Shown one piece after another: positions 2,809 through 31,187 of a stretch of DNA of 64,000 nucleotides (position 1 is its first letter; each line of letters starts with the position of its first letter). The notes under the pieces were generated by a model. It worked only from the letters and a program-made list of their open reading frames with translations, had not been told where the DNA came from and did not search any database. Origin of the DNA: an uncultured virus (IMG/VR IMGVR_UViG_3300009158_000043) (lineage: Duplodnaviria > Heunggongvirae > Uroviricota > Caudoviricetes); the IMG/VR virus record IMGVR_UViG_3300009158_000043. One strand, written 5' to 3'. A program made the translations under genes and the position numbers.

Positions 2809-3096
2809 TTAATCTTCTTCACAATCATCTAAAATCGCGTCCTCTAAAGAAGACCAGTCAAAACCCGACGCGTCCAGTGCCTCTGTTATATCAACACCCG
2901 CAAATGTAACTTTATGTATTTCAAACTCGGCAGGTTCCGGCGGATCACCAGGATCTCCATTACTTCTATAAAACGAGCCGCCAACTTCGGGGTGATATTT
3001 CCCACTAACCGCAACTGTTATTTCAATACTACGCTCTACTGTCTTTATTGGATTAGCAGGCCATCGTTTTCTTCGGAACGACTCTTTCGTTTTCAT
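2809..3096 (-). CDS. Hypothetical protein (start moved to MKTKESF)
   Basis: ATG overlaps the stop of the upstream gene; GDPGDPPEP motif. Confidence 0.7.
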   Translation of the reverse strand: MKTKESFRRKRWPANPIKTVERSIEITVAVSGKYHPEVGGSFYRSNGDPGDPPEPAEFEIHKVTFAGVDITEALDASGFDWSSLEDAILDDCEED

Positions 3097-3266
3097 AGTA
3101 TTTGGTTTAGGACTCGTTGGACTTGCTCTGCATAGCTCATCAGCCATACTTTTATGTAATACTTTCCGTTTTCTTCACGACCCGCAACCACCCCTCCAAA
3201 TTCTTTCATCAGGTGGTGATACTGTTTTTCTGTTACGGTAATTGGTATATCATATCCTATTTTCAT
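3093..3266 (-). CDS. Hypothetical protein (start moved to MKIGYDIP)
   Basis: Directly downstream of a promoter copy. Confidence 0.65.
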   Translation of the reverse strand: MKIGYDIPITVTEKQYHHLMKEFGGVVAGREENGKYYIKVWLMSYAEQVQRVLNQIL

Positions 3267-24294: not shown

Positions 24295-24360
24295 TGCACA
24301 CAGTAGGACTCGAACCTACAACCTCACCATTAAGAGTGGCGAGCTCTACCAATTAAGCTA
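24295..24360 (-). pseudogene. tRNA-Lys(CTT) lacking its 5' acceptor strand
   Basis: D arm, loop CTCTTAA and T arm present; the upstream 7 nt are the end of the endonuclease ORF and do not pair with TGTGTGC. Confidence 0.7.
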
Positions 24361-25025: not shown

Positions 25026-25061
25026 AAAGTATAGTGCTCTAGCCAACTGAGCTACGAAGTC
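25026..25061 (-). pseudogene. 5' half of a tRNA, probably Lys(TTT)
   Basis: GACTTCG-TAGCTCAGTTGGCTAGAGC-A-CTATA-CTTT, then breaks off at the anticodon. Confidence 0.65.
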
Positions 25062-25144
25062 ATTACTACGTAACTCATGGTGAAGTTACGTGTGTTTACC
25101 GTTTATATTTGTGCTTTCGTTTCATTTTTATTTTTTTCTTTTTT

Positions 25145-26046: not shown

Positions 26047-26180
26047 AACCAGAGAAAATTGTGAGAGTGTTATCTAGTGCTACCGTTACACCATACATCG
26101 TTTCCGATGCACTGGGATTCGAACCCAGACTTCTTTTGTTTAGAAAAAAATTGAAGTAACTCTCAACATTACTACTGATT
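26047..26180 (-). ncRNA. Y-RNA-like RNA 1 (permuted tRNA module)
   Basis: Paired ends; TAGTAA..GAGAGTTACTTC; T arm, GAAA-capped acceptor-like stem, then D arm. Confidence 0.8.
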
Positions 26181-26263: not shown

Positions 26264-26335
26264 GGTTAGATCGAACGAATTGCTGGTCCCGGCACTATAT
26301 CCAGCATTTGGCGGGATATTCGATCTATTATAATT

Positions 26336-26474
26336 TAAGACGAGAAATTGAATAGAGGTTGTTTTTCTAAAACAAGTTATGAGCTTGTCGACTGACCATT
26401 TGTCTAATCTGCCATGGGGCAAATATTGGATTCGAACCAATAAATTGAAGTAACTCTAATCTTGCTACGTCTTA
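26336..26474 (-). ncRNA. Y-RNA-like RNA 2
   Basis: TAAGACG/CGTCTTA ends; TAGCAA..TAGAGTTACTTC; T arm before D arm. Confidence 0.8.
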
Positions 26475-26482
26475 TTAATGTT

Positions 26483-26620
26483 TAGGTAAAGAAAGTTTCC
26501 GATCGTATGTTTAGCGCTCTATCCACTGAGCTACAGACGGCCTCTCAGCCATCCGACGGGATTTGAACCCGCGACCTCTCGTTTACAAGACGAAGTAACG
26601 ATCATGATTACTATTACCTA
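26483..26620 (-). ncRNA. Y-RNA-like RNA 3
   Basis: TAGGTAA/TTACCTA ends; GATCGTTACTTC; anticodon-like arm, T arm, closed acceptor, D arm. Confidence 0.8.
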
Positions 26621-26628
26621 TAATAAGT

Positions 26629-26757
26629 TTATCAGGAGAAAATTGCAAAGGTGTACGGCTTGCGCCGCTTCGGGGGAGTTGAACCCCCAACCCATTTTTT
26701 TGCAGAAAATTGCTCAACCATTGAGCTAGAAGTAACCTTTACGTTGCTACCTGATAA
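26629..26757 (-). ncRNA. Y-RNA-like RNA 4
   Basis: TTATCAGG/CCTGATAA ends; AAAGGTTACTTC; D, anticodon and T arms in normal order plus a GCAA hairpin. Confidence 0.8.
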
Positions 26758-26784
26758 TAATATTTTTCAAAGAACTAATATTTT

Positions 26785-26875
26785 AAATTATTGAGGTAAA
26801 GTTGCCTAGAGTGTCGTTTTTGGTTTTTTCCTATAAAAGTTAGAAGTAACTCTTTAGCTTGCCACTCAATAATTT
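26785..26875 (-). ncRNA. Y-RNA-like RNA 5 (minimal, no tRNA module)
   Basis: AAATTATTGAG/CTCAATAATTT ends; TGGCAA..AGAGTTACTTC; A-rich loop. Confidence 0.75.
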
Positions 26876-26882
26876 ATTTTTG

Positions 26883-26985
26883 TTACCGAAGCAGGATTCG
26901 AACCTGCGGTCATTGGAGTATTGGTGTTAGGTCACCACTCCTCAGACTATTCCTAATTAGCATTAAGCCGCTCTGCCATTCAGCA
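26883..26985 (-). ncRNA. tRNA-like RNA without a canonical anticodon arm
   Basis: Acceptor TGCTGAA/TTCGGTA, D arm, T arm GCAGG-TTCGAAT-CCTGC; about 53-nt atypical middle. Confidence 0.6.
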
Positions 26986-26998
26986 ATCTTGTGATTGA

Positions 26999-28624
26999 TT
27001 AGATCACAATTTTCTTCACCTTATCTAGGTGGTAATTTGGATTGAACTCGCTTTTCGCGATATCATCGAACATTGAATATCCGTAACCGTAGTAGAAGCG
27101 AACTTTATCTCCTGCGAGTTGAGTTGTTCCATATGCAGCTAAGTCTACTGAGTACACATATGGGCTACCACATGCTTTTACGTAACTCATATAAGAGCTA
27201 TAACTTGATCCGCGATTACATTCGTTATCAGAAAGGATGAAAATACGATCATACTTACGTCCTGATCTTTGTGCTTCCATCCAAGCTGAAGCTAAACTTG
27301 TACCACCCATGCTTGATTTCATCGCTGATGCGATTGAGAATACGTCAGAATTTGCATTCCATTTTACATATTCAGCATGTGAACCGAAACGGATTATATC
27401 TCCATTTGTTGCCTTTGCAATGGTTGCTGCGATTAACGCTGCTTTATCCATACAGGTGCTAGTATAGTTTGTCTTACGCATTGGGTCCAATACTCGAGTA
27501 GTCATAGATCCTGAGAAATCGACCATCACCAATGTTCTACCTGGAAGCATCTCGGCCAAATTTGGAACAGCCGATTCATAACCTGCAAGTAATGCTTTCG
27601 CAACCTTACGGCTATCTACCGTGCTGAACTCAGCATTAGTTACTTCGTGTGCTAAATCTAATTGGTATGGCATAACCTTACCTTTTCGGATCGATTCCGC
27701 ATCTGAAAGTAGAGCACATAGTTTATCAACAGTTGTTGCTTTGCTTACAGTTTTCAACACGTTTCTGATGTTTCGGATAGCTGCAAGAATTCCAAGTTTG
27801 TTCTCAGTTAAGAGGGCATCCCAGTTTTCTGCCTTTGCTTCTTTCAACACTTCTGCGGCTTTTGCTTCATCGAGCTTTCCTTCTTTGACAGCTTTTGCAA
27901 CTTCTTGACCAGCATCAGATTGAGCAACTTCCCATGTATCTGCTGAAACGTTTTCACCTTTCATGATGGCAGAAAGAACTGCTACTTTTTCTCCGTTCAC
28001 ATCTGCAAGAGCTTTAGACTCCTTTGGATTTGGGTGAACTAGGTTGATGACGTCGACTAGTGAACTTTTATATTTCAATAGTGAGTAAGAATCTAATTTT
28101 TCAAGTGCTTCTTTGAAACCTTTCTTCATTGCATTGGTCACGGCAGTCTTGTTCATTGCTGAGAAGCATGCGATAATTTCTGACATGTCGTCTGGTCTGA
28201 AAAGAGTTCCGCCTGACTGTGTTTTCTTATTCCACAATGAGTAGAATCGTTTTGCCCAATCTTGTCCAGCACAGTGTGGTGCTAAGTAGCTTGCAGCTAA
28301 ATGGTTTACTGAGCGCATTCCTTCGCCAACGCAACGTGAATACACGATACATTGTGCAGTGAAGTACGCATCTTCTTTTGCACAGTCATCAATTAGAGTT
28401 TTAATCTCCTTCATCGTTTCAGTTTCTGAACGATAGAATTGGTTCTCTAATTTTAGAGTGTTTAACATAGTCAAGAGCTTCAACCACTTATCAAGTGAGT
28501 AAGCATCATTTCCTTGACGGTTCTTAGCGTCTGGTTTTGGCAGGTTTACAGCCTCAACTAGCTTCACATCAGGTTGCATAGTAGCAAGTGTGTTGCGAAG
28601 ATTCTTGTTTCTGAATTTTGTCAT
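26999..28624 (-). CDS. Ro60/TROVE-domain RNA-binding protein with C-terminal vWA domain
   Basis: NRQG..AY, ENQFY, GMRS, RPDDMSE, LVHPNP, TWE, AIRNIRN, DFSGSM (MIDAS), ILSDNE. Confidence 0.92.
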   Translation of the reverse strand: MTKFRNKNLRNTLATMQPDVKLVEAVNLPKPDAKNRQGNDAYSLDKWLKLLTMLNTLKLENQFYRSETETMKEIKTLIDDCAKEDAYFTAQCIVYSRCVGEGMRSVNHLAASYLAPHCAGQDWAKRFYSLWNKKTQSGGTLFRPDDMSEIIACFSAMNKTAVTNAMKKGFKEALEKLDSYSLLKYKSSLVDVINLVHPNPKESKALADVNGEKVAVLSAIMKGENVSADTWEVAQSDAGQEVAKAVKEGKLDEAKAAEVLKEAKAENWDALLTENKLGILAAIRNIRNVLKTVSKATTVDKLCALLSDAESIRKGKVMPYQLDLAHEVTNAEFSTVDSRKVAKALLAGYESAVPNLAEMLPGRTLVMVDFSGSMTTRVLDPMRKTNYTSTCMDKAALIAATIAKATNGDIIRFGSHAEYVKWNANSDVFSIASAMKSSMGGTSLASAWMEAQRSGRKYDRIFILSDNECNRGSSYSSYMSYVKACGSPYVYSVDLAAYGTTQLAGDKVRFYYGYGYSMFDDIAKSEFNPNYHLDKVKKIVI

Positions 28625-28656
28625 ACTTTTAGTACAAGGTTTTACTTTTTTTGTTT

Positions 28657-29046
28657 TTATTCTTGCTCACTCGAGTTTGCAAAGAAGTGTAATAGTGAAC
28701 GGATATTTCTCTGTTCGCTAGTTAGGCGATCATAGTCGATTCTTCGTTCTTGAATCTCTTTTTGTATTGCAGCATTTTTATCTCTTAATTCAATAAGATC
28801 TAAATCGCTACTTGTAATCTCAATAAATGCTGCTTCTCTTGCATCTGCATTCGAATAGACTTTCTTTCCAGCGTCATCAACTTTTGAATTGATTTCACTT
28901 TTAAGTGTTGTCTCAGTATTTGAAATCTCGGTGGAGACTTCTTGAGATTTTTGAGTTTTTCCAAGAATCTGTAATTGCACATCGGCAATTTCTTGCGGTA
29001 AACTCAATAACCTATTGCTTAATTCTGATAGTTTTTCGTTATTCAT
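28657..29046 (-). CDS. Coiled-coil hypothetical protein upstream of Ro60
   Basis: 129 aa; KKVYSNADAREA. Confidence 0.75.
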   Translation of the reverse strand: MNNEKLSELSNRLLSLPQEIADVQLQILGKTQKSQEVSTEISNTETTLKSEINSKVDDAGKKVYSNADAREAAFIEITSSDLDLIELRDKNAAIQKEIQERRIDYDRLTSEQRNIRSLLHFFANSSEQE

Positions 29047-29084: not shown

Positions 29085-29243
29085 TTTGTCAGAGAAAATT
29101 GCAAAAGCCGTTTTTCTTGTAAGCGAGCTACCACTGCTCTACCACGGCAAGTAATTTTTTAGTTGTGCCGTGGGATGGATTCGAACCACCGACCTCTTCC
29201 TTATAATGGATTTCGAAGTAACTTTTACGTTGCTACTGACAAA
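29085..29243 (-). ncRNA. Y-RNA-like RNA 6
   Basis: TTTGTCAG/CTGACAAA ends; TAGCAA..AAAAGTTACTTC; T arm, closed acceptor CCACGGCA/TGCCGTGG, D arm. Confidence 0.8.
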
Positions 29244-30809: not shown

Positions 30810-31187
30810 TTAGCAATCAATCTTAATGAATGAGACGCCATGGATGCCTCTACCTTTAATGCAAGCATATGTATTACTTGTAAAGGTAGACACAAAGATA
30901 GGCTCCAATACGTTCATAATCGCATGGTGAACTATCCTGTCTGGATAATAAGGCAAGCTAGATATTACTCTTTCCTTACCTTCGAAAATTTTAAATGTCT
31001 TGTATTGAGAAGTGGTAAAAGTTTTAAACAAAAGAGCTTCATTCAATTTAAGAATGTTTATGTCTTTTTCGTTATCATGTGATATAACACCACTCTTCTT
31101 TGTTTTACTTTTCCTAGCAATAACATCTGCTAATTCTAAATTGTCAATTGAACAAACATCATTAAATAGATTCCCAACTCGCTTCAC
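30810..31187 (-). pseudogene. DGR reverse transcriptase, N-terminal fragment
   Basis: MKRVGNLF, EGKERVISSLPYYPDRIVHHAIMNVLEP, TYACIKGRGIH; stops before the YxDD motif. Confidence 0.9.

Follow-up and report, generated by a model that had tools for sequence, protein, structure and literature searches.

The Ro60 locus and its RNAs

The DNA analyzed here is a stretch of 64,000 nucleotides from the uncultured virus IMGVR_UViG_3300009158_000043, hereafter the window, and is a portion of a tailed phage genome encoding a T4-type large terminase, a Clp protease, sigma factors and cell-wall hydrolases. Between 19.5 and 29.5 kb the window carries an array of 28 tRNA genes called by ARAGORN, every one of them on the minus strand, and the open reading frame (ORF) of a Ro60 protein sits within this array. 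Beside the Ro60 gene lie six minus-strand RNAs (RNA1 to RNA6) that share one conserved two-part handle, RNA6 being upstream of Ro60 and RNA5 to RNA1 downstream. The initial annotation concerned positions 26483..26875, which take in RNA3, RNA4 and RNA5 with RNA1 and RNA2 just downstream, and it claimed that these Y-like RNAs carry different tRNA modules. Sequence, folds and covariation bear this out, and the RNAs form a family beside the Ro60 gene. The described elements are confirmed in the sequence of the minus strand:

26999..28624, minus strand: Ro60 (Rsr-like) gene, 541 aa; Pfam TROVE (1.5e-8) and vWA_Ro60 (2.5e-6)
29088..29240, minus strand: RNA6, with handle, 3-bp hairpin, T arm, 8-bp closed acceptor and D arm; sequence, fold
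29198-29210, minus strand: RNA6 hairpin UCC-AUUAUAA-GGA
26790..26870, minus strand: RNA5, handle only (GUGGCAAG variant) with an A-rich unstructured stretch; sequence
26629..26757, minus strand: RNA4, handle with normal-order tRNA body and GNRA hairpin; Rfam tRNA, ARAGORN
26694..26710, minus strand: RNA4 anticodon-like arm AUUUU-CUGCAAA-AAAAU; 14 homologs
26656-26667, minus strand: RNA4 hairpin CGGC-GCAA-GCCG
26485..26618, minus strand: RNA3, handle with circularly permuted tRNA body; sequence, fold, Rfam YrlA (28.1 bits)
26578..26594, minus strand: RNA3 anticodon-like arm UUCGU-CUUGUAA-ACGAG, then AGGUC; 5 bp, at the 'V' position of YrlA
26556-26572, minus strand: RNA3 T arm
26534..26555, minus strand: RNA3 acceptor-like helix, 7 bp, loop-closed (two further pairs and GAGA); all 7 pairs with compensatory changes
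26516-26531, minus strand: RNA3 D arm
26337..26473, minus strand: RNA2, with handle, T arm, CCAU-closed acceptor, D arm and full anticodon arm; sequence, fold
26372-26388, minus strand: RNA2 anticodon arm ACAAG-CUCAUAA-CUUGU; 14 homologs
26047..26180, minus strand: RNA1, with handle, A/U-rich hairpin with 7-nt loop, T arm, GAAA-closed acceptor and D arm; sequence, alignment of 8 homologs

In addition to the Pfam matches, the Ro60 ORF matches phrog_850 'RNA-binding protein' (7e-38), and its residues 33-514 match the Ro60 structure of Thermus phage phiLo (9KOP/9L5Y, E 1.8e-9). A tblastn search of isolated phages with the Ro60 protein gave no Ro60 above ~30% identity. The DNA of this phage is present in lake and freshwater metagenomes from several studies.

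RNA3 was described as close to a whole circularly permuted tRNA, and all arms are present in the stated order in both sequence and fold: anticodon-like arm, AGGUC, T arm, loop-closed acceptor, UA, D arm with GG in its loop, and G. The anticodon-like arm has a 5-bp stem and a 7-nt loop with U second and A sixth. As this hairpin is a regular anticodon arm, the module amounts to a whole circularly permuted tRNA. RNA2 also contains all tRNA parts, with the break in the variable region and the anticodon arm 3' of the D arm. Both RNA3 and RNA2 have the anatomy of a permuted tRNA gene, in which the 3' half precedes the 5' half and the acceptor ends are linked.

RNA4 carries its arms in normal order followed by a GCAA hairpin, as first described, and matches the Rfam tRNA model (RF00005) with 47.5 bits over model positions 4-67. 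ARAGORN calls it a tRNA-Cys. The body consists of a short acceptor-like helix that borrows the CUUC of the handle, a D arm, the anticodon-like arm and a T arm, and the acceptor-like helix has 4-5 bp where a full tRNA has a 7-bp acceptor with free ends. RNA5 is, as annotated, the handle and an A-rich stretch only, and it folds no better than shuffled sequences (z -1.0). The hairpin assigned to RNA6 is real, but it lies outside 26483..26875, 2.3 kb away and upstream of Ro60. RNA6 begins directly after a tRNA-Met, and the 3' end of RNA1 abuts tRNA-Glu. The claim that no RNA has a free CCA end holds at the DNA level, where no acceptor end is free and none of the six RNAs has an encoded CCA after the acceptor 3' strand. 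Single-sequence folds recover the noted arms with z-scores of just -1.0 to -3.8; therefore, folding energy alone proves little.

The shared handle

In the 5' part of the handle, a short helix strand is followed by RUAGYAA and, some bases further on, by a second helix strand and the word GUUACUUC. In the 3' part, the strand that pairs with the second helix strand precedes CAAYUUUCUC, after which comes the strand that pairs with the first. Both ends of an RNA thereby join in two short helices that flank a conserved internal loop. The sequence GAAGTAAC occurs nine times in the window, compared to 2.13 occurrences expected, and 0/100 shuffles contain as many; six of the nine belong to the six RNAs. 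A longer handle pattern is found five times, compared to 0.27 expected, and four of these are RNA1, RNA2, RNA4 and RNA6. Stems 1 and 2 of the handle show compensatory changes in the RNA3, RNA4 and RNA6 types. Pairing of GUAG with UUAC of the handle as a D stem was considered and dropped, because it would form a knot with the covarying stem 2 and both words are invariant.

Conservation and covariation in related phages

Related loci were collected by a Ro60 protein search of viral contigs, which returned 35 loci at 36-81% identity. One of these is the same phage, and the remaining 34 loci were used. The nearest record (G001) is also this phage, being 100% identical from window position 26747 onward, and is not independent. 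The handle is present on the Ro60 strand in 33/34 loci, with up to seven per locus. The Ro60 strand has 108 distinct GTTACTTC sites, compared to just 6 for its complement, and the motif RTRGYDW lies at most 20 nt upstream in 100/108 of the former, as against 4.9% of random 20-mers. In total, the 34 loci contain ~100 distinct RNA copies. The order of classes is kept in the relatives (RNA6 type, Ro60, RNA5 type, RNA4 type, RNA3 type, RNA2 type), and the handle-only RNA of the RNA5 kind adjoins Ro60 across the whole range of 36-81% Ro60 identity, even at 36-37%.

For each class, pairs were counted in an alignment against the structure written from the window sequence:

RNA3 type: 9 distinct sequences, 97.6% of cells paired, 16/32 pairs compensatory, 0/500 shuffles, slid controls 31-50%
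RNA4 type: 14 sequences, 94.2% paired (96.7% in a second register), 25/37 compensatory, 0/500 shuffles, slid controls 42-52%
RNA6 type: 9 sequences, 97.1% of cells paired, 17/31 compensatory, 0/500 shuffles, slid controls 38-47%
RNA2-type arm: 14 sequences, 100% paired, 5/5 compensatory, slid controls 17-49%
RNA2-type arm, shuffles: 216/500 reach the pair count and 0/500 reach the covariation score

The second register of the RNA4 type concerns the short acceptor-like helix. Because each structure derives from one of the aligned sequences, it is favoured over the slid controls, while the compensatory counts are independent of this. The predicted helices of the RNA3, RNA4 and RNA6 types and of the RNA2 arm are supported by covariation. 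The initial annotation expected the anticodon-like arms to form, and they are 100% paired in 9, 14 and 14 homologs of the RNA3, RNA4 and RNA2 types. In the RNA3 type all 5 pairs of the arm are paired in 9/9 sequences, and the loop-closing pair is GC in 5, UA in 3 and AU in 1; in the RNA4 type all 5 pairs are compensatory. One of the three pairs of the RNA6-type hairpin covaries, being CG in 6 sequences and GC in 3.

Handle patterns were also searched for directly. A scan of viral contigs gave at least 125 loci, and among the matches listed, 75 were single hits without a 3' handle and Ro60 lay within 4 kb at 13 loci. As most of these hits are due to chance, the scan is silent on linkage. A corresponding scan of genome contigs gave no Ro60 hits among the at least 120 loci listed, and two plausible Y-like RNAs (L215 and L187) among the matches listed. 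L215, at 3001-3140 of a contig from a Saprospiraceae metagenome-assembled genome (Bacteroidota bin), is a plausible Y-like RNA with the same handle, and the contig could be from a phage or give a clue to the host.

The relatives also contain forms that are absent from the window. One further Y-like class, with 14 distinct sequences, combines the handle with a normal-order tRNA body that has a 7-bp acceptor (e.g., GCGUGAA...UUUAUGC) without CCA. Examples are L003:6229-6357, L004:6746-6882 and L012:6398-6535, with 11 more, and the anticodon loop of this class varies among phages (UGG, UAG, CAG, GUG, UCA, GCU and others). In two loci at 56-58% Ro60 identity (L025:7631-7850 and L026:7770-7995), the handle adjacent to Ro60 encloses a ~170-nt module that is not tRNA-like. 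Y-like RNAs at L004:6029-6193, L011:1948-2109 and L017 ~1540-1700 have a tRNA-Leu-like D arm (GGCGGAAyUGGUAGACGC) and an extended stretch ahead of the T arm, i.e., type II-like tRNA bodies on the same handle.

Anticodon-like loops

The architecture of the anticodon loop is kept everywhere, and the triplet is kept in the RNA3 type, half-kept in the RNA2 type and free in the RNA4 type. The RNA3-type loop is CUGUUAA in 8/9 sequences and CUUGUAA in the window, giving 2 loops in 9. The RNA2 type has 7 loops in 14 sequences: CUCAUAA in 5, CUUAUAA in 3, CUAAAAA in 2 near-identical phages, CUCAUAC in 1, and CUAAUAA, CUGCAAA and UUAACAC once each. The triplet CAU is found in 6/14 of these, and A35-U36 are kept in 10/14. 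Ten different loops occur among the 14 RNA4-type sequences, where the second position (U33) alone is invariant, and the nine RNA6-type sequences have AUUGAAA (4), AUUAUAA (2), AUCAUAA (2) and AUAGGGA (1). The initial annotation treated conservation of the loops in homologs as decisive for its proposal, and this conservation is seen in the RNA3 type and partly in the RNA2 type, but not in the RNA4 type (10 loops in 14); the RNA6 type has 4 loops in 9. The fixed anticodon that characterizes orthologous tRNAs is found in none of the RNA4, RNA2 and RNA3 types.

When the acceptor loop was cut and the ends rejoined in a script, ARAGORN called a full tRNA in 9/9 RNA3-type and 14/14 RNA2-type sequences, compared to 0/23 of the same sequences in native order. 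Brute-force re-permutation of the RNA1 and RNA6 types gave mostly the expected triplets; as this involved ~90,000 cut combinations per RNA and was uncontrolled, it is given no weight.

Relation to YrlA

YrlA RNAs, which are found in bacteria and phages, are defined by two sequence motifs, GNCGAAN0-1G on the 5' side and the conserved YUAY, and by four structural elements, namely a 'V' stem-loop of lower conservation, a T arm, an acceptor-like stem that is closed, and a D arm (Chen 2014, PMC4201824). The YrlA domain has been solved and is a tRNA mimic with a closed acceptor, without an anticodon loop or a free CCA (Wang 2018, bioRxiv 10.1101/312249). The same work discusses a tRNA dimer as the origin of YrlA, the first tRNA supplying the T arm and the second the D arm.

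Among the six RNAs, RNA3 is the one match to the Rfam YrlA model (RF02553), over 26513-26579 with 28.1 bits and E 0.0013. Two phage elements have a BLAST match to RNA3, and each lies beside a Ro60-like gene. The element of Xanthomonas phage Tenjo covers the whole YrlA model with 38.8 bits and reads CAGUUACUUC-GA-CUGUUAA-UCGAG-AGGUC, i.e., it shares word and arm with the RNA3 type. Mycobacteriophage Nappy has an element with a score of 36.1 bits and the sequence GGUUACCUC-AUUGUAA-GAG. In the Rfam alignment of the Tenjo element, the handle aligns with the 5' Ro60-motif region of the model, and the GUUAC of the handle includes the conserved YUAY of YrlA (as UUAC). Since the Tenjo YrlA shares both word and arm, RNA3 is a local form of canonical YrlA. 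Judged by sequence, its anticodon-like arm is the published 'V' stem-loop (Chen 2014, PMC4201824).

Interpretation and alternative explanations

The six RNAs probably belong to a multi-copy family of YrlA-like phage Y RNAs, i.e., tRNA look-alikes mounted on a Ro60 handle, and this assessment covers their identity and the general mechanism. The phage's own Ro60 ring would probably dock at the handle, and the tRNA body between the handle strands has its parts in four or more orders. RNA3, like RNA1 and RNA6, has the known YrlA order of hairpin, T arm, loop-closed acceptor and D arm; RNA2 has the same core with the anticodon arm after the D arm; RNA4 keeps the normal tRNA order with a shortened acceptor, and RNA5 lacks the module. 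As the acceptor is closed or missing, the RNAs would not be chargeable as made, and they would most likely serve as L-shaped look-alikes that link tRNA-recognizing proteins to Ro60 or vie with tRNA for them.

We infer Ro60 binding, the L-shape and the role of the RNAs in a series of decreasingly certain steps. The surest is that the RNAs are released from a tRNA transcript, which the start of tRNA-Glu at the end of RNA1 and the position of RNA6 after tRNA-Met suggest. Ro60 would then bind the handle, and the module may fold into a tRNA L-shape, a step we regard as less certain than binding. Last in this order, the module would engage proteins that recognize tRNA, either tethering them to Ro60, in the manner of Yrn1 and the phiLo RNAs with PNPase, or competing with tRNA.

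Several points weigh against this explanation. The published 5' Ro60 motif GNCGAAN0-1G is missing from the handle, and no GNCGAA is found in the six RNAs. With 28.1 bits, RNA3 stays below the YrlA gathering score of 69 bits; the Tenjo and Nappy elements do so too, so this threshold shuts out phage members. YrlA is described as lacking the anticodon loop, a description that, taken literally, does not cover RNA2 and RNA3. The related loci were collected via Ro60 and thus show that Ro60 comes with the RNAs, not the converse, and chance matches dominated the reverse scans for the handle. With the 17-nt arm shuffled, ARAGORN continued to call a tRNA in 151/180 cases of the RNA3 type and 188/280 of the RNA2 type, and we rejected it as a test of the anticodon arm. 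Given this leniency, re-permutation shows the spacing of acceptor, D and T parts, and the arm rests on sequence and covariation. Lastly, one RNA library (metatranscriptome) contains three exact contigs of low depth, at 26795-26945, 27401-27561 and 28516-28746, the first of which (151 nt) spans RNA5 as weak evidence of its expression. As DNA carry-over is possible, these contigs are a hint and no proof of transcription, and stretches without cover carry no meaning.

The anticodon-like loops might instead make the RNAs Ro60-held decoys or competitive inhibitors for host anticodon nucleases, synthetases or modification enzymes, as the initial annotation proposed. Large phage tRNA arrays are tied to tRNA-directed defence, and the array of this phage has 28 genes. 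The loop CUGUUAA is that of the phage's own tRNA-Asn and CUCAUAA that of its tRNA-Met, the RNA3-type loop is retained across changes of its closing pair, and A35-U36 persist in most of the RNA2 type (10/14). It has also been suggested that YrlA, which is not cut by an anticodon nuclease, could competitively inhibit that nuclease (Hughes 2020, PMC7790460). We consider a decoy role plausible but doubtful. The loops of the RNA4 type vary freely and those of the RNA6 type take four forms in nine sequences, the triplets of RNA3 in the window and in the near relative L015 are UGU and GUU although the acceptor is almost the same, and a mimic of a substrate is not obviously able to soak up a catalytic nuclease. 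As the RNA4 loops are free and RNA5 has no module, a decoy role would not be the whole story. A more elaborate version, which we put forward just as tentatively, is a Ro60-based kit of five to seven Y RNAs, each presenting a different tRNA in whole or in part and acting as an uncleavable or sacrificial stand-in that blocks host enzymes of the anticodon loop, particularly defence nucleases. The loops on display may be Asn/Thr-like, Met/Ile-like and Cys-like, and RNA2 and RNA3 would represent intermediates that have survived from the proposed emergence of Y RNAs out of tRNA dimers.

The remaining alternatives are less probable than these. That the handle serves RNA processing or stability, or binds a protein other than Ro60, with the proximity of Ro60 merely reflecting a tRNA-rich region, would agree with the missing GNCGAA motif, with viral-contig handle clusters that have no Ro60 within 4 kb (e.g., L080/L081) and with the apparent location of the RNAs within one tRNA transcription unit. 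It is nonetheless unlikely, as GUUAC includes the conserved YUAY of YrlA, the Tenjo handle aligns with the 5' Ro60-motif region of the model, and the handle-only RNA stays directly at Ro60 across 36-81% protein identity. RNA2 and RNA3 could also be circularly permuted tRNA genes that yield working tRNAs through cleavage of the handle, ligation of the ends, opening of the acceptor loop by RNase P and 3' trimming, and addition of CCA. The set of tRNA parts is complete and correctly spaced and is recognized by ARAGORN once re-permuted (9/9 and 14/14, compared to 0/23 native), the YrlA of M. smegmatis is cut by RNase P and receives CCA (Chen 2014, PMC4201824), and permuted tRNA genes are mentioned for algae (10.1101/312249). 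Several findings make working tRNAs very improbable: the same handle is carried by the module-less RNA5 and the normal-order RNA4, the acceptor loops are often stable tetraloops (GAGA, GAAA, UUCG), triplets shift between close orthologs without matching changes in the acceptor, the phage already encodes tRNAs with UGU, GUU and CAU, and the ARAGORN control is lenient. Bacteria are not known to have a bulge-helix-bulge splicing system, which also speaks against such maturation. Least credible of all is that the RNAs are decaying, functionless tRNA duplicates. tRNA arrays do breed pseudo-tRNAs, and the window has an acceptor-less tRNA-like element at 24303-24360 and a handle-like remnant near 25040-25075, but every helix counted (RNA3, RNA4 and RNA6 types, RNA2 arm) shows compensatory changes, the order RNA6-Ro60-RNA5-RNA4-RNA3-RNA2 is common to the relatives, and ~100 distinct copies occur in 34 loci.

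Other elements in the window

Between Ro60 and RNA5, the minus strand at 26883-26985 encodes a tRNA-like RNA that has an acceptor of 8 bp whose ends are free, together with a T arm and a D-like arm. A 47-nt insert that includes a long extra hairpin takes the place of the anticodon arm. The element scores 32 bits with the Rfam tRNA model and is not called by ARAGORN, and a tRNA-like element occupies this position in the relatives L004 and L005 too.

The element at 24303-24360 (minus strand) has a D arm, an anticodon arm with the loop CUCUUAA and a T arm, without a pairing acceptor, and scores 44.8 bits over positions 8-63 of the Rfam tRNA model. It lies at the junction of two homing-endonuclease ORFs, DUF559 and HNH. 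Lys codons are read by none of the 28 ARAGORN-called tRNAs in the window. At ~25040-25075 (minus strand), just upstream of the DUF559 endonuclease ORF, a handle-like remnant GUAGUAAUGACUUCG is followed by a D arm (UAGCUCAGUUGGCUAGAGCA), which may be a Y-like RNA disrupted by insertion of the endonuclease.

A structured stretch closed by a 10-bp hairpin is found at 26266-26336 (minus strand) between RNA2 and tRNA-Gly (minimum free energy (MFE) -17.5, z -2.2), with no handle and no tRNA features. Further along, at 30810-31187 (minus strand), a 125-aa ORF matches phrog_1423 'Reverse transcriptase' (2e-35, profile positions 96-212 of 1040), and this ORF has no Pfam match at 1e-5.

Implications

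The pairing of Ro60 with Y RNAs, and phage copies of that pairing, are already known. What the present locus adds is a widened class of tRNA look-alikes, in which reordered tRNA bodies, some with a complete anticodon arm, are carried on one handle. The binding partner of the tRNA-like domain of bacterial Y RNAs has been a question since 2014. These phages offer a natural series on one handle, with the anticodon arm before the core, after the core, in normal order, or with no module, and each form is conserved across many genomes. The domain question therefore becomes testable by comparing the proteins that each form pulls down.

Additionally, canonical phage YrlA turns out to have a 'V' stem-loop shaped like an anticodon arm, whose loop is conserved even between distant phages. 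RNA3 would have kept the anticodon arm of the first tRNA and RNA2 that of the second, which suits the published tRNA-dimer origin of YrlA. If the loops engage anticodon nucleases, Ro60 would be linked to the arms race over tRNA, and a kit of stand-ins, if true, would constitute an RNA-based counter-defence built on Ro60. These findings are relevant to the fields of Ro60, Y RNAs, tRNA mimicry and phage tRNA biology.

Comparison with known systems

The RNAs resemble YrlA in having a Ro60 neighbour, paired ends and YUAY (the UUAC in GUUAC). RNA1, RNA3 and RNA6 follow the order of 'V' hairpin, T arm, closed acceptor and D arm, and the T and D arms of RNA3 match the model. RNA2, with its core and extra arm after the D arm, the normal-order RNA4 and the module-less RNA5 depart from this order, and the handle differs from that of YrlA in having no GNCGAAN0-1G and in scoring below the gathering score. 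While YrlA occurs as one or two per genome, this phage group has five to seven paralogues per phage. In a literature search covering main-text passages and few subscription journals, we found no Y RNAs with a true anticodon stem-loop, no combination of several permutation classes on one handle and no arrays of five to seven Y RNAs per genome. Nor was a 'V' stem-loop with regular anticodon-arm geometry and a loop conserved from lake phages to Xanthomonas phages found described in the literature covered; phage YrlAs and their V arms are listed in supplementary material of Chen 2014, where part of the RNA3-type arm may already be drawn.

Yrn1 of Deinococcus radiodurans, which tethers Ro60 to PNPase, is another Y RNA that combines a T arm with a possible 'anticodon arm', whose stem has 5 bp (Chen 2014, PMC4201824). 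However, the arm of Yrn1 is placed between the T and D elements and its loop is 6 nt long, whereas the phage arms, with loops of 7 nt, are found outside the T-acceptor-D core. Thermus phage phiLo has a Ro60 with the adjacent Y-like RNAs Yrl1 and Yrl2, and its solved structure is the most similar to the Ro60 of the window (PMC12135203). The phiLo Ro60 binds the phage Y-like RNAs, and the ribonucleoprotein (RNP) recruits host PNPase (PMC12135203). In the passages covered, that report describes the phiLo RNAs by a CGAA motif and a stem-bulge-stem, without mention of a tRNA-like module.

Outside the Y RNAs, the permuted tRNA genes of red and green algae likewise place the 3' half ahead of the 5' half and join the acceptor ends by a short linker. 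The algal genes mature to working tRNAs via a circular intermediate, whereas the handle of the phage RNAs also serves non-permuted and module-less RNAs. The tRNA-like domain of tmRNA and the tRNA-like structure of TYMV share an L-shaped tRNA-like core with the fold predicted for the phage modules, and the Tymo_tRNA-like model gives a weak match to RNA4 (23 bits). These mimics have free CCA ends and are aminoacylated, whereas the acceptors of the phage RNAs are closed or shortened.

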